Of a stretch of DNA of 64,000 bases, positions 52,305 through 62,467 are shown piece by piece. The stretch lies in the NCBI GenBank assembly GCA_049799315.1, contig JBARHQ010000020.1:21085-85084 (forward strand), written 5' to 3'. Position 1 is the stretch's first letter; each line of letters begins with the position of its first letter. The translations under genes were made by a program, and so were the position numbers. Origin of the DNA: Thermodesulfovibrionales bacterium (GTDB lineage Bacteria > Nitrospirota > Thermodesulfovibrionia > Thermodesulfovibrionales > UBA6898). Below the pieces are notes generated by a model. That model saw nothing but the letters and a program-made list of their open reading frames with translations. It did not search any database and was not told the origin of the DNA.

Positions 52305-52395
52305 TTACGCTATTGAAATAAAGAGACATTATGCCGTTCATGGACTTAACCATAGCTCAATAATGAAACAATTTGTCTTGAAAGGAGGTGATTGT

Positions 52396-52713
52396 ATGAG
52401 GATGATAACATCAATAGTTGCAGTCATGGTTCTAATCATGTTTGTCGGCGGTGCTTTTGCCGTCGGGCCCGGAAAGACTTTGGAATTTGAAGCCAAAGGC
52501 GCAGCAAAAGTCATATTTGATGGCAAGATCCATGCGGATAAAGGAAATAAGTGCAACGCATGCCACACGAAGATATTCCAGATGAAAAAAGGGACTGCAA
52601 AAATAACGATGGCGGATATTAACGCCGGGAAGTTCTGTGGAGAATGTCACAACGGTAAAACTGCATTCAAGGCAAGTGAGGCAGCAAACTGCGCTAAGTG
52701 TCACAAGAAATAA
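52396..52713 (+). CDS. tri-haem c-type cytochrome (c7 / c3 family)
   Basis: Start MRMITSIVAV... with AAAGGAGGTG upstream. Signal peptide. Three CxxCH motifs (CNACH, CGECH, CAKCH) in a mature protein of about 85 aa. Confidence 0.8.
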   Translation: MRMITSIVAVMVLIMFVGGAFAVGPGKTLEFEAKGAAKVIFDGKIHADKGNKCNACHTKIFQMKKGTAKITMADINAGKFCGECHNGKTAFKASEAANCAKCHKK

Positions 52714-55174: not shown

Positions 55175-55564
55175 TCAATTGGCGTCGATGCTAAACTTCA
55201 TGGTGGCAGTCTTCCCGCCACGCACCGTCTTTATGGCTATGGTCCAAGATCCGGCCATAGAAATGTTCACCTTGGCCTGATAACTACCCCCCTTCAATGC
55301 CGCATCGGTCTTGTAGTCCTATGCCGGCATCCCCGACATTGCGGGCATTGAGTATTCAACTTTCACTCTGGCGTCGGTAACGGCTTTGCCGGTTGCGTCC
55401 TTGATTTCGATTGTGATATTATTGTCGCCCACAACGGGTGGGTTCTTGTCAATCGTAGCGACAATAGTATACTCACCGGCCTTTTTTGTTACCTCATAAT
55501 TCTTCGCGTACGCAATGCCTGCTATAAAAAGTAGCATCATTGTGACTACCATGGTCTTTTTCAT
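55175..55564 (-). pseudogene. FixH/YtkA-like secreted protein interrupted by an in-frame TAG
   Basis: MKKTMVVTMMLLFIAGIAYA signal (AGGAGAAG SD). ...VKVEYSMPAMSGMPA-TAG(55321-55319)-DYKTDAALKGGSYQAKVNISMAGSWTIAIKTVRGGKTATMKFSIDAN*. Both halves are in one frame and together look like one domain. Confidence 0.6.
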
Positions 55565-56009
55565 TCTTCTTCTCCTACATTTTTTGATCAAGCACACCCT
55601 GGCGCTTGTCTACATCTGGGACATTTGTTTCCTACAGTTTTAATTTATCATTTAACTTTGAACAAAATATGAATTAGATAATTCGGTATGTTGACATGGT
55701 AGGCGTCATCGTGGTGCTGAGGGCAAAAAGCACAACTGGCGAATAACGCGGTGAAGTTCACAGTCTCCAAGTCAATAGAGAGTGAATCATTCCTCCAGCA
55801 AAAGCCATGTTTGACAGCTGAATATTTATATGATAAGACTAAAGAATTAGTCGAGTAACTTGAACGGAGCAAGGAGGTGATGAGAAGCGGCCTTAAAGAT
55901 ATGAGTCATGTTAAATTATGAGCAGATAGTTATGTTTTACCGAAAGTAGTGCTGCGAGACTTAAGAACTGACTTTATAAATCCATCAAACAAAACAGGGA
56001 GGATGTACC

Positions 56010-56453
56010 ATGAAGACGATATTTGTAATAGCCGCTGTAGTTATCTCTACCTTAATTCTGATGCTTTCCGTAGGAACCAATTTCTCGATGGCAGCTGATA
56101 AGATGATGGACAAAGATATGATGATGAAAGATGGCAACGCGATGATGATGGACAAGGGCCAGATGATGATGGATAAGGGCAAAATGATGAAAGAAGGCAT
56201 GATGGATAAGGACGCCATGATGAAGGAAGGCGAGATGATGATGAAGGAAGGCCAGATGATGATGGATAAAGGCTCCGGAATGAAAGACAAGATGATGATG
56301 AAGGCCGGAAAGATGATGATGAAGAATGGTGAGATGATGAAAACCGGTGAAATGGATAAGAAAATGATGAAGAAAGAGGGCCATAAGATGATGAAAGAGG
56401 GCAAAATGATGATGGATAAGGGCAAGAAGATGAAGGAAGAGCCAATGAAATAA
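56010..56453 (+). CDS. secreted methionine-rich repeat protein (about 35 % Met in the mature part)
   Basis: GGGAGGA SD. 28-aa signal peptide (..GTNFSMA/AD). By my count 42 of 119 mature residues are Met, in units such as MMMDKGQ / MMMKEGQ. The three long ORFs on the other strand are repeat artefacts. Confidence 0.75.
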   Translation: MKTIFVIAAVVISTLILMLSVGTNFSMAADKMMDKDMMMKDGNAMMMDKGQMMMDKGKMMKEGMMDKDAMMKEGEMMMKEGQMMMDKGSGMKDKMMMKAGKMMMKNGEMMKTGEMDKKMMKKEGHKMMKEGKMMMDKGKKMKEEPMK

Positions 56454-56710
56454 GATAAGAGGCCCTCAGATAAAGCTTTAAAGCGTCATATTCAGCCTTC
56501 AGAAAGTAGAATATCAGATTCGGATTTATTCGAGATTGTCGTGAGACCCGCTCATGCAACGCTATCGAAATGCCATGGGATTTGAAATTCTCCTGATAAT
56601 CAGAGCCGATGGGACAACCCCTTCCACAACTTGTCCCATCGGCATATTAAGCAACTATTGTTTGTTACAGTGCCGTACTTTTTACGGACGGATTACCCGC
56701 AAATGCAATC

Positions 56711-57073
56711 TTATTGACTCAGCCAACTCTTTGCCTCGGAAAGTTTATCATTGGCAAAAATTCTTACCGGATAGGGGATGATAAACCCGAATATTTTGAC
56801 TGCTTCCACGATCCAGCCGACATCGGAAACAACTGCAATTTTGTCGAATGCAGTGAGATGTTTAAACCCGACTTTGGCATCATCCCACATTGCCGCCGCT
56901 GTAAATTTATCGAAAGCCTGACCTAAGTGGTACAACAAACGAATCTTGGCATGTCTTTTCAGCTTTTCTTCCACCGCCGGAATCAGTATCTTTTCATAGT
57001 CATCGGCGGTTACTGTTCCCTTTGCGCTTACTGCAACGATATCGTCTGGCAGGTCCGGAATAAATTCTATCAT
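56711..57073 (-). CDS. STAS/SpoIIAA-like protein (DUF3478 type)
   Basis: 120 aa: MIEFIPDLPDDIVAVSAKGTVTADDYEKILIPAVEEKLKRHAKIRLLYHLG...KIAVVSD. Confidence 0.7.
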   Translation of the reverse strand: MIEFIPDLPDDIVAVSAKGTVTADDYEKILIPAVEEKLKRHAKIRLLYHLGQAFDKFTAAAMWDDAKVGFKHLTAFDKIAVVSDVGWIVEAVKIFGFIIPYPVRIFANDKLSEAKSWLSQ

Positions 57074-57699
57074 TTGATCCTCCTATGTAAGGTATTGAGG
57101 CAGTCCTGATTATTTTTAGTCTACCGGATAAATCCTATGGTTACAAGTATTATCAATATAGAGCGCTAACATTAGAGATCGAGATGAGGAATCGTAAGCC
57201 TAGGAGACATCCTTGTGTCGGAGAAAACCTTCGGCAGCAGCATTTGAAGGCTTGAGGGTTTTGCCATATCCGAGCCAGGTCTTGTCGATTCAAAATCATC
57301 TTCTATTTCGGTAGAAAAAGGGCATGAGATGTCTGCCATTTTATTTGCTTCATCTCCTAGGACTCAAAAGGAAACACAATAATAGTGGCTATACATAAGT
57401 TTTCTTAAGTGAACTGGTCAACGAAGATTACGACCCGAAGAACGTAAGCCAGTTGTGACATGTTATTTTGGAAATCAACACTGTCGCTGAGAAGGCCGCA
57501 GCGTTGGTTTGTCGGTGAAACCATCTCTGCCTGACAAGACAGCTATGGGGCCAGATAACATCTCAGCGGTCAAAAAACCGAGATTGGGATTATGTGTATG
57601 AAAGGTAAGTCCTGCAGGAGGAGACTGACCTGCCCATGTGATCTGGAACACTATCTAAAGTTACAGTGATAATATTGCGCTATTACTACAAATAAATAT

Positions 57700-57799: not shown

Positions 57800-58282
57800 G
57801 TGGATTTAGGCGTCCTTAAAAAAGGTTTCTTCATAGCTATTATTTCCTCGTCTGCGATCTTCTCATGTTCACATAGCCCCTTCATACCGGCAATTAATGC
57901 CACGTCGGAGGGAGTAGCGATAAAGGGGTATGATCCGGTTGCATATTTCACAGACGGACGGCCGATCAAGGGGAAGCCTGAATTCAAATACGCATGGAAC
58001 ACTGCGGAGTGGAGGTTTTCCAGCTCCGGTCATCTTGAGATGTTTATGCAAGATCCTGAAAAATATGCGCCCAGATACGGGGGCTACTGTGCCTATGCCG
58101 TGGGCCAGGGAAAAACCGCCGATATCGACCCCGACGCATGGACAATTTCTGAAGGAAAGTTATATCTCAATCTGGACATGGATGTGCAGAGATTATGGGG
58201 GAAGGACATGCAGATGTATATCCGAAAGGCCGACGAGAACTGGCCGCGAATGCTTAGCAAAAATAAAGGAGGTATCAAATGA
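57800..58282 (+). CDS. YHS-domain protein (family that also has selenoprotein members), with N-terminal export/anchor segment
   Basis: GTG start with GAGGAT upstream. Hydrophobic N-terminus. AIKGYDPVAYFTDGRPIKG...WRFSS..HLEMFMQDPEKYAPRYGGYCAYAV. Confidence 0.7.
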   Translation: MDLGVLKKGFFIAIISSSAIFSCSHSPFIPAINATSEGVAIKGYDPVAYFTDGRPIKGKPEFKYAWNTAEWRFSSSGHLEMFMQDPEKYAPRYGGYCAYAVGQGKTADIDPDAWTISEGKLYLNLDMDVQRLWGKDMQMYIRKADENWPRMLSKNKGGIK

Positions 58283-58836
58283 AATACTTGACCATATTCT
58301 TGGGGGTCCTGCTGACTGGATTCGTTGCAATCAGCATAGTTTTTTACGGCGGAATGGGAAAACAGGCCGGGGCGACAAGCGTAGCGTCGCCGTCGCCGAT
58401 AAAGGTGTATTCAGCTGAAAAAGGAGGCTACATCATGAGCGAAACAGTTGTTAAAACCGAAGAAGAGTGGAAAAAACTTCTGACGCCGGAACAGTTCCAT
58501 ATCCTGCGGAAAAAAGGGACTGAGCGGGCATTCTCCGGAATATACGACAAGAATTATGAGCACGGCATATACCGTTGTGCGGGCTGCGGCCTCGATCTTT
58601 ACAGGTCTGAAGACAAATTCGATTCCGGCACCGGCTGGCCGAGTTTCACGATGCCGATCGCTCCTGAGAACATCATCACCAGACCGGACAACAGCTTCTT
58701 CACTCATCGCACCGAGGTGGTCTGTCGCCGCTGCAACGGTCATATCGGTCATGTCTTTGACGATGGCCCGAAGCCGACCGGGCTGCGCTACTGCATGAAT
58801 TCAGCTGCCCTGCAATTCGTGGCGACCAAAAAATAA
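58279..58836 (+). CDS. msrB: peptide-methionine (R)-S-oxide reductase MsrB with N-terminal TM anchor (long form)
   Basis: ATGA overlap with the YHS gene stop and AAAGGAGG upstream. TM segment YLTIFLGVLLTGFVAISIVFYGG. MsrB motifs CAGCG, CRRCNGHIGHVFDDGP and RYCMNSAAL. A second SD+ATG lies in frame at 58435. Confidence 0.85.
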   Translation: MKYLTIFLGVLLTGFVAISIVFYGGMGKQAGATSVASPSPIKVYSAEKGGYIMSETVVKTEEEWKKLLTPEQFHILRKKGTERAFSGIYDKNYEHGIYRCAGCGLDLYRSEDKFDSGTGWPSFTMPIAPENIITRPDNSFFTHRTEVVCRRCNGHIGHVFDDGPKPTGLRYCMNSAALQFVATKK

Positions 58837-58862: not shown

Positions 58863-59471
58863 ATGAAAATGCTCATTATCACGATCATGGGATTGTCGTT
58901 GATACTCATCGCAATTACCCCAGTTATTGCTGCAACTAATCTTGAGAAAGCGACTTTTGCAGGTGGATGTTTCTGGTGCATGGAGCACCCGTTCGACGAG
59001 ATTCCAGGTGTTGTTTCGGTCACCTCTGGCTACACTGGCGGACAGAAAAAGAATCCCACTTATAAAGAAGTCTCGGCCGGAGGAACTGGGCATGCTGAGT
59101 CAGTTCAGGTCGTCTATGATCCGTCAAAGGTGACCTACGAGAAGCTCTTGAACGTTTTTTGGCACAACATCGACCCGACTGCCGAAGATCGACAGTTCTG
59201 TGATTCAGGGCATCAGTATAGAAGCGCTATTTTCTATCATACTGAAGAACAGCACCCGGTGGCGGTCCAGTCGAAGTCTCTATTGGAGAAGAACAAACCC
59301 TTCAAGGGACGGGTTGTGACTGAGATTGTGCAGGCCACCGAGTTTTACCCAGCCGAGGATTATCACCAGCACTATTACAAGAAAAACCCGATCCGTTACA
59401 AATTCTACCGGACTAACTGCGGTCGTGACCGTCGGCTTAAGGAGTTGTGGGGTAGCGACGCGGGCCATTGA
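58863..59471 (+). CDS. msrA: peptide-methionine (S)-S-oxide reductase MsrA with signal peptide
   Basis: Signal MKMLIITIMGLSLILIAITPVIAA. Catalytic GGCFWCMEH. Remainder is typical MsrA (GHAESVQVVYDP...). Confidence 0.9.
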   Translation: MKMLIITIMGLSLILIAITPVIAATNLEKATFAGGCFWCMEHPFDEIPGVVSVTSGYTGGQKKNPTYKEVSAGGTGHAESVQVVYDPSKVTYEKLLNVFWHNIDPTAEDRQFCDSGHQYRSAIFYHTEEQHPVAVQSKSLLEKNKPFKGRVVTEIVQATEFYPAEDYHQHYYKKNPIRYKFYRTNCGRDRRLKELWGSDAGH

Positions 59472-59618: not shown

Positions 59619-60533
59619 TTATTCAACTCGGATCATATAGCTTGTGGTGATTATCTCGCTCCCGTATCCCACCTGCCCAAATATTTGATATAAGCCTGCA
59701 GCAGGGAAAATAGCATGAACTTCAATTTTAGGACCGAATTTATCGGGAACTGTCATCTTCATCTGCATGTGATGTTCATGATGCCCCATAGCTGGCATCC
59801 CAGGCAGTTCGCCATGAGCGTGAATGAAATGTGTGAGATCCCCCGATATTATCGCAAGATGCATTGGTGCCGAGAGCCAAGGTTCCAGTTTGGTGACAGG
59901 TTCTCCATTCTTTGTGAACGTATAACTGAGTGTAACTTCTTTCCCTGAAGTTATGCGCTCAGGAGTGGTCGCAAACGTAACATCAAGACCCCCAAATCTC
60001 TTTTTCCTGGAATAATCCTGTTTTGTAGGTCCCATCCTAGGTTCACCAGCAACATCAACCACGAAATGTTTCGAAAGCGGTGAATCATTGACGGCAAAGT
60101 CGATTCCGACGATATAACGACCAGCTTTTGGAAAGGTAAATCGTACAGGGTAGAGAGCGGTTTTTTTCATCTCGGGTGTTATCGGTCCGAAATCCTGAGG
60201 ATGAATGTGGGCAAAGACATCGAAATCCTGACTCGCAATTATGACGTGTATAAGTCTATCATGGTGTATAGTTAGGCCCTCTACAGGTTTCCCTTTGCTA
60301 TCCTTGAACGAAAACATGATAGCTGTGGGCGTCCCCACTGTAATATGCTCCGGTTCCGTTTTAATGCCTGCAATAATGTTATTTCCACCTTCGCCCTGTA
60401 TTTTTTGCATGTCCTTGTGCTGATGACCCTGCATTCCGCTCATCTCTGCAAAAACTTGGGTTGCGCCTAAGATAAGGAGTCCGCCAAAGAACATTGTGCC
60501 TGTCATTGCCAAAATCTTTTTTATTTTATTCAT
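59619..60533 (-). CDS. secreted two-domain His/Met-rich protein (probable metal-binding)
   Basis: 304 aa with signal peptide. EMSGMQGHQHKDMQ near the N-terminus. Repeated domains each end in an HxH-type motif (FAHIHPQDFGP; FIHAHGELPGMPAMGHHEHHMQMKM). No family name recognised. Confidence 0.6.
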   Translation of the reverse strand: MNKIKKILAMTGTMFFGGLLILGATQVFAEMSGMQGHQHKDMQKIQGEGGNNIIAGIKTEPEHITVGTPTAIMFSFKDSKGKPVEGLTIHHDRLIHVIIASQDFDVFAHIHPQDFGPITPEMKKTALYPVRFTFPKAGRYIVGIDFAVNDSPLSKHFVVDVAGEPRMGPTKQDYSRKKRFGGLDVTFATTPERITSGKEVTLSYTFTKNGEPVTKLEPWLSAPMHLAIISGDLTHFIHAHGELPGMPAMGHHEHHMQMKMTVPDKFGPKIEVHAIFPAAGLYQIFGQVGYGSEIITTSYMIRVE

Positions 60534-60635: not shown

Positions 60636-61960
60636 CAGTGCTGTCCGGTTAAAAAACCGCTGAACACTTAAAACTATATGACAGATAAGAATATTTGCAA
60701 TATTTTTAGTGGTGTCGACTTGAATACACGTCGACGAATGGGCAATCCTTTCGGAACTGAGATTTCCGGAGGTCCCAATGTACACTGGCAAAACCCTATT
60801 TGCGCAAATCATGGATTTTCTTCCTTGGAGCACATTTCATCGTATCGTTACTCGCTATGGAGGCGACCATCGTATTCGTACCTTTCGCTGCACGGAGCAG
60901 TTTCGGATTCTGGCGTTCGCCCAATTGACCTATCGGGAGAGTCTGCGCGACATAGAGGCGTGCCTGATGGCTCAGACATCGAAGCTCTATCATATGGGTA
61001 TCAGTGGAGCGATTTCTCGATCGACTCTGGCCGACGCAAACGAATCCCGCGACTGGCGCATCTACGCCGATTTTGCACAGAGACTGATCGCTCAAGCAAG
61101 ACGGCTCTATGCAGGCGAGGATTTGGGACTCGACCTTTCCAACACGGTTTATGCTCTGGACTCCACGACCATCGATCTTTGTCTTTCGGTGTTTCCATGG
61201 GCTCCATTCCGCGATACAAAAGCAGCGGTCAAAGTCCATACTCTCTTGGATCTCAAGGGTGCAATCCCGAGTTTCATCCATATCACCGACGGCAAGTGGC
61301 ACGACATCAACATGCTCGACCTGCTTGTTCCGGACCCCGGAGCGTTCTACATTATGGATCGAGCATACATGGACTTTGCTCGCCTCTATGCGTTGCACCG
61401 GGCAGGAAGTTTTTTCGTGACCCGCACGAAGTCGAACCTCAATGCGAGGCGCGTATACTCTGCGTCCGTCGACCGGTCCTCTGGCATTATCTGCGACCAG
61501 AGCATTATGTTGAACGGCTACTACAGTCATTGTCATTACCCCGAACATTTGCGTCGTATTCGCTTCAAAGATACCGAGAGAGACAAAACGCTGATCTTTC
61601 TTACCAACAACACGACCCTGCCGGCACTCACTATTGCTGCCCTCTACAAAAGCCGTTGGCAGATCGAACTGTTCTTCAAATGGATCAAACAGCATCTTCG
61701 CATCAAACGGTTTTATGGCACATCGGAAAACGCAGTGAAGACCCAAATCTGGATCGCCGTTTCCATGTATGTCCTCATCGCCATCATAAAGAAAAAGCTC
61801 AATCTCGATACGTCCCTTTATACATTGTTACAGATTCTCTCGATTACCCTTTTCGAGAAAATGCCTTTACAACAAGCATTTCAGACCACCGGAGAACGCT
61901 CAGCTATGCTCGAAAACCAAAACCAGTTGAATTTATTCACTTCTTAACCGGACACTAGTG
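60636..61960 (+). mobile_element. IS4-family insertion sequence (1325 bp), apparently intact
   Basis: Terminal inverted repeats CAGTGCTGTCCGGTTAA (60636-60652) and TTAACCGGACACTAGTG (61944-61960), 14/17 complementary. Single DDE transposase ORF. 9-bp direct repeats flank the element. Confidence 0.85.
60778..61947 (+). CDS. IS4-family DDE transposase (DUF4372-type N-terminus)
   Basis: 389 aa. MYTGKTLFAQIMDFLPWSTFHRIV...ALDSTTIDL...YIMDRAY...YKSRWQIELFFKWIKQHLRIK (Y-R-E-K signature). Confidence 0.9.
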   Translation: MYTGKTLFAQIMDFLPWSTFHRIVTRYGGDHRIRTFRCTEQFRILAFAQLTYRESLRDIEACLMAQTSKLYHMGISGAISRSTLADANESRDWRIYADFAQRLIAQARRLYAGEDLGLDLSNTVYALDSTTIDLCLSVFPWAPFRDTKAAVKVHTLLDLKGAIPSFIHITDGKWHDINMLDLLVPDPGAFYIMDRAYMDFARLYALHRAGSFFVTRTKSNLNARRVYSASVDRSSGIICDQSIMLNGYYSHCHYPEHLRRIRFKDTERDKTLIFLTNNTTLPALTIAALYKSRWQIELFFKWIKQHLRIKRFYGTSENAVKTQIWIAVSMYVLIAIIKKKLNLDTSLYTLLQILSITLFEKMPLQQAFQTTGERSAMLENQNQLNLFTS

Positions 61961-62002: not shown

Positions 62003-62467
62003 TCATATTTCTTCTGTCACAAGCTGGTCTTTGATTGCGATGCAGCCGATCACGCTCTGGGCCGCTGGGCAGAGGTGCAGATATGATGAGAATGCCTCCC
62101 GGGCTGCTCCGATCTGTTCTTTCGAGACTTTCAGGTGATAGGTGACTCGTATCGCGGTCATTTTTAGCACTCCATTGACGTTTTCGATATCGCCCTCTCC
62201 CTCAGCCCTATACCGGTCTTCTCTAGTAAAGATTTTCTTTCCGGCCAACACTGTGGCCAGTGTACCCATCATTCAGGCGGCAGTGGCAGCAATAATATGG
62301 TCGAGCGTTGCTGCATGCTCCTCTTCAGGCTCGACCTTGTAAAACCTCTTGATTCCCCCGTGGACACCATAATAGACAGGCTCGTTGAATCCCTCGATCA
62401 TCGCCCTTCTGGTCGGGCCTTTCTCTCTAACGATCGTCACGCGTGACGTATGAACAATCTCTCCCAT
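62003..62467 (-). CDS. OsmC-family peroxiredoxin-like protein with in-frame TGA at the catalytic Cys position (candidate selenoprotein, or pseudogene)
   Basis: Track ORFs 62273-62467 and 62003-62272 are contiguous in one frame: ...TLDHIIAATAA-TGA(62275-62273)-MMGTLATVLAGKK...SSYLHLCPAAQSV... OsmC proteins have ..A(L/A)A(G/A)C.. at this position and a second C-P motif near the C-terminus. A hairpin lies 13-35 nt after the TGA. Confidence 0.65.

Follow-up and report, generated by a model that had tools for sequence, protein, structure and literature searches.

A heptad-repeat, methionine-rich exported protein of Nitrospirota, encoded near exported methionine sulfoxide reductases, as a candidate recyclable oxidant sink

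We analyzed a stretch of 64,000 nucleotides from a Thermodesulfovibrionales bacterium of the phylum Nitrospirota (assembly GCA_049799315.1, contig JBARHQ010000020.1, positions 21,085 to 85,084), referred to as the window, focusing on a gene for a methionine-rich exported protein at positions 56010..56453 of the forward strand. According to the list of open reading frames (ORFs) and a composition count, the gene starts with ATG and comprises 147 codons, 45 of them for Met, followed by a stop codon. A Shine-Dalgarno (SD) sequence, GGGAGGA, is read at 55997..56003 (+), 6 nt before the ATG, confirming the good ribosome-binding site reported in an earlier note made from the sequence alone (the original prediction). 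The N-terminus has the n-, h- and c-region layout of a signal peptide, consisting of MK-, a hydrophobic run of 21 residues and S-M-A before an Ala, with small residues at positions -3 and -1; the predicted signal peptide encompasses residues 1–28 (MKTIFVIAAVVISTLILMLSVGTNFSMA; 56010..56093, +), with cleavage between SMA and AD. Both the layout and an AQA/AE-type cleavage site are kept in nearly all homologues, in line with the 28-residue signal peptide proposed originally.

The predicted mature part of 119 aa, which follows residue 28 (NFSMA/AD) and is encoded at 56094..56450 (+), contains 42 Met, or 35.3% compared to 30.6% for the whole ORF. The other residues include 29 Lys, 14 Gly, 12 Asp, 10 Glu and a single His, with no Cys, Trp, Phe or Tyr, and our recount of Met, His, Cys and aromatic residues is identical to the first one. 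Lys, Asp and Glu together account for 43% of the mature protein; its predicted pI is 9.4 and its net charge +7. The Met residues form 19 units in which a run of other residues is followed by one to three Met, eight of them ending in MMM, seven in MM and four in a single M. Tandem Repeats Finder (TRF) identified a dominant 21-nt period, and the autocorrelation of both Met and Gly is found at lag 7, which makes the repeat for the most part a heptad, G-x-M-M-M-(D/K)-(K/E). The imperfect M(M)(M) units of the original prediction therefore stand, with a count of 19 rather than about 18 and a period of mainly 21 nt, or 7 aa. The Met density had been called extreme, which holds within the window, where, among reading frames of 80 aa or more, Met makes up 8% of the runner-up and 2.2% on average, but less so when compared with the family member P0015, the mature part of which reaches 39% Met, and with published Met-rich proteins, which have 21–33% Met over the whole ORF (PMC3514235).

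Two genes for methionine sulfoxide reductases are located 1.8–2.4 kb 3′ of the Met-rich gene on the same strand, and both products have N-terminal export signals. The first encodes MsrB (methionine-R-sulfoxide reductase; 58279..58836, +; Pfam SelR, E 3e-50; TIGR00357, 187 bits), which has a hydrophobic segment for export or anchoring at its N-terminus, and the second encodes MsrA (methionine-S-sulfoxide reductase; 58863..59471, +; Pfam PMSR, E 2e-66; TIGR00401, 209 bits), with a predicted signal peptide (cleavage TPVIA/AT) and a GCFWC active site. The msrB gene overlaps by 4 nt with a preceding gene (57800..58282, +) for a member of an exported YHS-domain (seleno)protein family, present here in the Cys form with a GGYCAYA motif (NCBIfam NF041384, 164 bits at a cutoff of 70; Pfam YHS).

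Relatives of the Met-rich protein were first sought in a word-indexed search of 5.8 billion (5.8e9) proteins, which returned 25 sequences, all with a similar signal peptide ahead of MMM-D/E-K/N-G repeats; none contains a Pfam domain, and their names are uninformative. When 1.84 billion cluster representatives were searched exhaustively with a profile, 141 matches were obtained at E ≤ 1e-3 and 29 at E ≤ 1e-10. Scanning one genome per species with a profile from a 7-sequence alignment identified 12 loci, all in metagenome-assembled genomes (MAGs) of Nitrospirota (including Ca. Sulfobium mesophilum), Thermodesulfobacteriota or organisms labelled 'delta proteobacterium', and seven of these loci encode full-length orthologues of 145–147 aa with 40–45 Met, 65–75% identical to the window protein. 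Scans of the Met-rich protein against Pfam (E ≤ 0.01) and NCBIfam (E ≤ 1) gave no match, those of P0015, P0002 and ten distant relatives nothing meaningful, and a sequence-profile search of the PDB noise alone (E ≥ 0.07), so that the protein indeed has no relative in a named family, as was suspected. It aligns over its full length with an unnamed family characterized by the signal peptide and G-x-M-M-M-D/K-K/E heptads. Frame-shifted or truncated copies of the Met-rich gene occur at loci L020 (10001..10449), L018 (589..1004, copy 1) and L017 (3386..3583); these are either pseudogenes or homopolymer or repeat errors of long-read MAG assemblies.

The alignment of eight orthologues, including the window protein, contains one or two single-residue indels and 25 invariant Met columns. 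For the mature part, pairwise Nei-Gojobori estimates among the eight were 0.04–0.15 for the proportion of nonsynonymous differences (pN) compared to 0.30–0.85 for synonymous ones (pS), and the corresponding rate ratio, dN/dS, was 0.03–0.12 where dS was calculable, with synonymous sites near saturation. DNA similarity to the orthologous loci extends from 12–22 nt 5′ of the ATG, covering the SD sequence, through the stop codon, and homologues keep the reading frame with conserved start, stop and length. Taken from sequence comparison, the pattern indicates that the Met-rich ORF is a genuine gene under strong purifying selection. Where Met is replaced among orthologues, the substitute is Lys in 26 alignment cells, Thr in 24 and Glu in 7, and Leu, Ile or Val in only 4, although six of the nine codons that lie one base away from ATG specify these three amino acids, and two of the three transitions of ATG lead to Val or Ile. 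The rarity of such replacements despite the neighbours of the codon implies that the protein is kept Met-rich and polar, a selection pattern that fits a thioether role over hydrophobic packing. Three antisense ORFs of 110–170 aa, rich in Ile, Ser, Pro and His, span the repeat at 55985..56559 (−); they were rejected as genes and are regarded as by-products of the ATG repeat, which reads CAT on the opposite strand, with selection acting on the + frame.

The gene context was determined for the loci of the genome scan together with 47 further metagenome loci by tblastn with 28 neighbour proteins; the resulting table comprises 55 non-redundant loci, and counts given below out of 26 cover those for which no less than 2 kb of downstream sequence is available. 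A gene of the methionine sulfoxide reductase type, i.e. for MsrA/MsrB or for a molybdenum (Mo) enzyme of the sulfite oxidase fold, is present within 3.5 kb of the Met-rich gene at 15 of 26 loci, and at 13 of these 15 it follows the Met-rich gene on the same strand at a distance of no more than 1.5 kb. The msr neighbourhood, the recurrence of which in homologues was to be checked, is thus found at many related loci and is tighter there than in the window. A YHS homologue lies within 5.3 kb at 9/26 loci, in several of them immediately upstream, a small exported protein containing Cys or selenocysteine at 9/26, a histidine kinase/response regulator pair resembling OrhK/OrhR at four or five loci (4/26 in the context table), and copper genes at only 3/26.

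The reductase partners are of several kinds, which represent three unrelated classes of enzyme of the methionine sulfoxide reductase type. MsrB–MsrA, or an MsrA–MsrB fusion, occurs in the window, L015, L017, L018, L032, L045, L053, L054 and L009; cytochrome b561 with a short YedY-like Mo enzyme in L010, L041 and L054 (truncated in L030); SorA-like Mo enzymes in L016, L031, L040, L042, L043, L044, L050, L059 and L062; and membrane-fused Mo enzymes of ~540 aa in L012, L018 and L064. MsrB orthologues with 74–76% identity are encoded 58–650 nt 3′ of the Met-rich gene in L015, L017, L032, L053 and L054, and the msrB gene is followed by that of an MsrA orthologue with 81–88% identity in L015, L017, L032 and L054. 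The most complete arrangement we describe, at L054, places on a single strand OrhR, OrhK, the small selenocysteine protein, the Met-rich protein, MsrB (+58 nt), MsrA, cytochrome b561 and a Mo enzyme, and the order OrhR, OrhK, ..., Met-rich, MsrB, MsrA is found at L032 and L015. The Mo enzymes of the sulfite oxidase fold lie 90–800 nt 3′ of the Met-rich gene at many loci (e.g. L016, 10964..12037); some are SorA-like with a twin-arginine translocation (Tat) signal, and others carry a fused membrane domain of ~250 aa at the N-terminus (L012, 10528..12153; L018, 2122..3741). For both the SorA-like and the membrane-fused enzymes, scores stay well short of the SorA and MsrP cutoffs; these enzymes are candidates for new Met-sulfoxide reductases. 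The small exported protein, ~100 aa, adjoins the Met-rich and YHS genes in L013, L015, L017, L018, L021, L031, L032 and L054; it has a weak NF041383 match and no Pfam family (L015, 8925..9230; L018, 5968..6327). Its L015 form contains an in-frame TGA (VIFYVK-TGA-YDVGK) that aligns with a Cys of the L018 form (VIFKVKCYDEGK), a pairing typical of selenoproteins. Because the same accessory set of Met-rich, small Cys/selenocysteine and YHS proteins accompanies either MsrBA or a Mo enzyme, the non-homologous reductase partners appear functionally interchangeable, and the property they have in common is plausibly Met-sulfoxide reduction.

Several of these components have counterparts in a characterized oxidant response. 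In uropathogenic Escherichia coli (UPEC) CFT073, the OrhK/OrhR pair activates the oxidant-induced genes c3566–c3568, the products of which are a cytochrome b, a Mo oxidoreductase and C3568, a homologue of MrpX (PMC8550376). In L015, the kinase encoded alongside the Met-rich/MsrBA cluster shares 37% identity with OrhK across its entire length of 490 residues (E 1e-112), regulators of the related loci are 48–54% identical to OrhR, and the Mo enzyme of L010 is 34% identical to C3567 (E 3e-43). The Met-rich components differ: C3568 matches TIGR02953, the pentapeptide MXKDX repeat family, with E 8.8e-9, and neither the window protein nor P0015 matches it at E ≤ 1, while a profile comparison (hhalign) of our family with C3568 yielded an alignment of no more than 11 residues, at the cleavage site of the signal peptide, with a probability of 52%. 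Membership in the MrpX/MXKDX family was rejected, given the lack of a match to this hidden Markov model (HMM) and a repeat period of 7 rather than 5. We read these relationships as non-orthologous displacement, with modules homologous to that of UPEC in which a different Met-rich protein would fill the slot of C3568. MrpX of Azospira suillum PS, described by Melnyk et al., is exported and consists of 20% Met and 44% charged residues; mrpX is co-transcribed with yedYZ and strongly induced by chlorite and hypochlorite, and the protein is oxidized by hypochlorous acid (HOCl), after which YedY/MsrP, a Mo enzyme, returns it to the reduced state in vivo (PMC4436054). The precedent cited in the original prediction was thus correct as to a sacrificial, HOCl-oxidized peptide that is re-reduced, the recycling enzyme being YedY/MsrP and not MsrA/MsrB.

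Considering the conservation and the gene context together, we favour the view that the Met-rich protein is a non-homologous functional analogue of MrpX, a sacrificial sink the Met residues of which are regenerated by periplasmic MsrA/MsrB; we regard this role as fairly probable, and like all functional statements made here it derives from comparative genomics. The protein would be exported by the Sec pathway as a soluble, basic polypeptide of ~14 kDa, the ~42 solvent-accessible thioethers of which would provide a high-capacity sink for two-electron oxidants in the periplasm, such as HOCl or chlorite-derived species, peroxides and possibly reactive oxygen species from Cu-catalyzed reactions. 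Each Met would be converted to a mixture of Met-S- and Met-R-sulfoxide. MsrA is stereospecific for the S-sulfoxide and MsrB for the R-sulfoxide, and the two exported enzymes would regenerate Met from the respective epimers, completing a catalytic oxidant-scavenging cycle similar to that of MrpX with YedY/MsrP in Azospira. The YHS protein or the small protein, each with Cys or selenocysteine, may act as the periplasmic electron donor for MsrA/MsrB. In related genomes, Mo enzymes of the sulfite oxidase fold would take the place of MsrA/MsrB, often under an oxidant-sensing pair of the OrhK/OrhR type.

Several observations weigh against this assignment. Both reductases are neighbours of the Met-rich gene, as originally stated, and are encoded on the same strand with export signals, but the window gene lies outside the msr operon, separated from it by 1.35 kb and an opposite-strand SpoIIAA-like gene (56711..57073, −). 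The region of the latter (56691..57173) has 95% DNA identity to L013, a Nitrospirota MAG, compared to 82% for the Met-rich gene and about 66–77% for YHS, and in L013 the SpoIIAA-like gene is inverted and the gene order differs. This disparity in identity between the SpoIIAA-like region and its flanks (66–82%), together with the changed order, points to a local rearrangement and suggests that a recent event, either a transfer or a rearrangement, separated the YHS-msrBA operon from the Met-rich gene. An OrhKR-like pair was not found by tblastn in the 64 kb, where only generic matches of ~25% to unrelated kinases and regulators appeared. Among the well-flanked loci, 11 of 26 have no nearby reductase; nine reductase loci have SorA-like enzymes, and counting these as Met-sulfoxide reductases is an assumption. 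Distant members (L002, L004, L006, L023–L028) have unrelated neighbours, and the contexts of P0024/25, P0003, P0006, P0015 and P0017 revealed no recurrent theme. Copper-related genes flank the Met-rich gene in L019, L013 and L012, and YtkA-like and His/Met-rich proteins flank the cluster in the window. No sequence homology to MrpX was detectable by HMM or profile comparison. Finally, the host lineage appears to be anaerobic, which bears on the question of which oxidant is relevant; for E. coli, anaerobic Met oxidation via chlorate- or chlorite-derived species is documented (PMC9805139).

Further genes around the cluster were annotated as follows. A YtkA-like exported protein of 92 aa is encoded divergently, 5′ of the Met-rich gene (55319..55597, −), and is a weak match to ExtJ, a protein of a selenite/tellurite reduction operon. 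A second YtkA-like exported protein, of 304 aa (59619..60533, −), has segments rich in His and Met (MSGMQGHQHKDMQ; GMPAMGHHEHHMQMKM) resembling soft-metal sites. Directly 3′ of the msr cluster lies an insertion sequence (IS) element (60678..61958) with a 389-aa transposase-like ORF (60778..61947) and overlapping ORFs, which may have disrupted the original neighbourhood of the cluster. It is followed by a gene for an OsmC-like peroxidase (62003..62467, −), in which an in-frame TGA joins, by translation, the ORFs 62273..62467 and 62003..62272; the TGA falls exactly at the catalytic Cys position of OsmC/Ohr (HIIAATAA-TGA-MMGTLATV), so the protein is a probable selenoprotein. OsmC also occurs near the Met-rich gene in L016 (76% identical, 3.7 kb away) and in L012 (Cys form, Pfam OsmC, adjoining), and it is a possible further member of the envelope or oxidative-stress neighbourhood. 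A triheme cytochrome c7 is encoded 3.3 kb 5′ of the Met-rich gene (52363..52713, +); a homologue with 57–58% identity is located in L011 (10744..11055), 336 nt 3′ of the Met-rich gene and followed by a protein with a PCYCGC motif. A tblastn search for the small Cys/selenocysteine protein gave no match in the window. An Rfam scan was empty throughout the window, indicating that there is no riboswitch 5′ of the Met-rich gene, and a sigma-70 and terminator scan of the window was uninformative, with no promoter or regulator assignable. The OrhR-type inverted repeat in its UPEC form, TCACA-N15-TGTGA, was looked for in 22 regions lying 5′ of operon starts and of Met-rich genes, with only scattered, inconsistent matches, among them TCACA-N18-AGTGA at 55758–55785 of the window.

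Of the alternatives, the one that survives best is that the protein is a periplasmic buffer or metallochaperone for Cu(I)/Ag(I), with Msr keeping the ligand Met reduced, a function that could coexist with that of an oxidant sink. Soft metals are bound by clusters of Met thioethers, as in the Met motifs of CusF, CopA/PcoA and CueO and in SilE/PcoE. The proteins or Met segments of this group resemble the window protein in being periplasmic, Met-rich and partly disordered or helical. At L019, genes for CusF, an efflux protein of the outer membrane and a multicopper oxidase come after the Met-rich gene. Upstream of the Met-rich gene, L012 encodes a cupredoxin close by, and L013, at a distance of 2–3.5 kb, a CopA-type ATPase that has YHS and HMBD domains. 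The flanking YtkA-like proteins of the window, one of them His/Met-rich, and its YHS-domain neighbour would also suit a metal function, and for the kinases of the modules the only full-length alignment is with TIGR01386, the family of heavy-metal sensor kinases. Copper stress in E. coli is also known to induce MsrPQ and to oxidize Met ligands of CusF (PMC9302797). On the other hand, the L015 kinase is specifically closest to the oxidant-responsive OrhK, and the protein has one His in 147 residues and lacks the HxxM/MxxH motifs typical of SilE/PcoE, which use paired His/Met motifs. To our knowledge, MMM triplets with Lys-rich spacers correspond to no known geometry of a Cu(I) site. Membership in SilE/PcoE is not borne out, as no Pfam family matches at E ≤ 0.01 and no sil or pco gene is nearby, and the same lack of any Pfam match, hence of one to copper-protein models, separates the protein from CusF (PF11604), whereas the genuine CusF of L019 is recognized with E 1.6e-24. 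With copper genes at 3 of the 26 well-flanked loci compared to reductase genes at 15, context supports the MrpX-type sink much better than the Cu/Ag binder, the two precedents having been offered side by side originally, and we consider the metal function to be rather unlikely.

A second alternative is that the protein is an amphipathic helical holdase, chaperone or structural envelope protein that binds clients through Met 'bristles', comparable to the M domain of SRP54 or to Spy, with Msr as a maintenance system. An AlphaFold2 model built on a 24-sequence alignment is all-helical, with three long helices, and Spy is a periplasmic helical chaperone with Met residues repaired by MsrP (PMC12503329). 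The confidence of the model is low (predicted local distance difference test, pLDDT, 66; predicted template modelling score, pTM, 0.27), Foldseek comparison of the model with the PDB yielded 0 matches, and beyond a probably helical structure nothing can be read from it. The helical hydrophobic moment, 0.25, exceeds that of shuffled sequences (0.19 ± 0.03) by only ~2 standard deviations, and the amphipathic-helix mechanism was dropped for this marginal difference. Distant profile matches (P0032, P0037, P0038 and P0057) do keep the heptad as G-x-h-h-h-D/E-K with Leu, Ile or Val for many Met, but they may constitute another functional group or mere compositional look-alikes that share repeat composition and not ancestry, and true orthologues almost never make this exchange. 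Altogether, a chaperone role is improbable. That the ORF is a non-functional, ATG-rich simple repeat open by chance in one frame, as the long opposite-strand ORFs of 146–170 aa also left open and the frame disruptions in two related loci (L020; L018, copy 1) could suggest, is effectively refuted by the low dN/dS at near-saturated synonymous sites, by the conservation of length, start, stop, SD sequence and signal peptide across two phyla, and by the conserved gene pairing.

Returning to the recyclable sink, a broader role can be put forward tentatively, namely that the Met-rich protein is the hub of a modular, hitherto undescribed periplasmic Met-redox defence in anaerobic Nitrospirota and Thermodesulfobacteriota. 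Its 42 Met would then serve as a 'redox capacitor', associated with two exported Cys/selenocysteine proteins (the YHS protein and that of ~100 aa) and with interchangeable reductases, and the SorA-like and membrane-fused Mo enzymes of the sulfite oxidase fold encoded directly 3′ at no fewer than 12 loci would represent new classes of protein Met-sulfoxide reductase.

The principle of a sacrificial periplasmic Met-rich peptide with its reductase has been known since 2015. What is new is an unannotated family that is non-homologous to MrpX, with a heptad MMM architecture and 35% Met, its pairing with thiol-type MsrA/MsrB and with several Mo enzymes of undefined specificity, its occurrence in Nitrospirota and Thermodesulfobacteriota, and its association with periplasmic Cys/selenocysteine proteins. 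If the proposed role is true, the combination of a sacrificial Met peptide and a reductase is not a proteobacterial peculiarity tied to MsrP and would have had an independent origin, with another repeat architecture, nearly double the Met density, thiol-type recycling enzymes and strictly or largely anaerobic hosts. The protein also offers a natural Cys-free substrate with 35% Met for Msr enzymology, its associations make uncharacterized partners testable (the YHS family, the small Cys/selenocysteine proteins and the SorA-like Mo enzymes), and the family, which lacks a Pfam or NCBIfam model, could be named.

Compared with known systems, the closest likeness is to MrpX and C3568, which are also small, exported, Cys-poor, composed almost only of Met and charged residues, and encoded next to genes for periplasmic Met-sulfoxide reductases. 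In L010, L041 and L054 the likeness extends to homologues of C3566/C3567, in the form of a cytochrome b with a YedY-like Mo enzyme, and to an OrhK/OrhR-like pair. The window family differs from MrpX in having heptads with MMM or MM blocks rather than single Met residues in M-x-K-D-x pentads, in the Met content of 35% for the window protein compared to ~20%, in the thiol-type MsrA and MsrB partners in the window in place of the Mo enzyme MsrP/YedY, and in its hosts, Nitrospirota and Thermodesulfobacteriota instead of Proteobacteria. The six bacterial hypothetical proteins MRP1–MRP6 of Liang et al. (2012) are, by their description, alike in their high Met content (21–33%), and several have a signal peptide and no Cys; they are good substrates of both MsrA and MsrB and very efficiently oxidized by hypochlorite. 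In vitro, HOCl or H2O2 oxidized them readily and the combination of MsrA and MsrB reduced them again, but they were chosen as laboratory tools, with no reported physiological role or gene context (PMC3514235). With the HprSR/CusSR–MsrPQ system of E. coli and the OrhKR–C3566–C3568 system of UPEC, the related loci share an organization in which an envelope sensor kinase is combined with one or more periplasmic Met-sulfoxide reductases, with or without a Met-rich peptide. They differ from these enterobacterial systems in the exported MsrA/MsrB, which would need a periplasmic thiol or selenol donor, and in the additional exported YHS (NF041384) and ~100-aa Cys/selenocysteine proteins, which are absent there.

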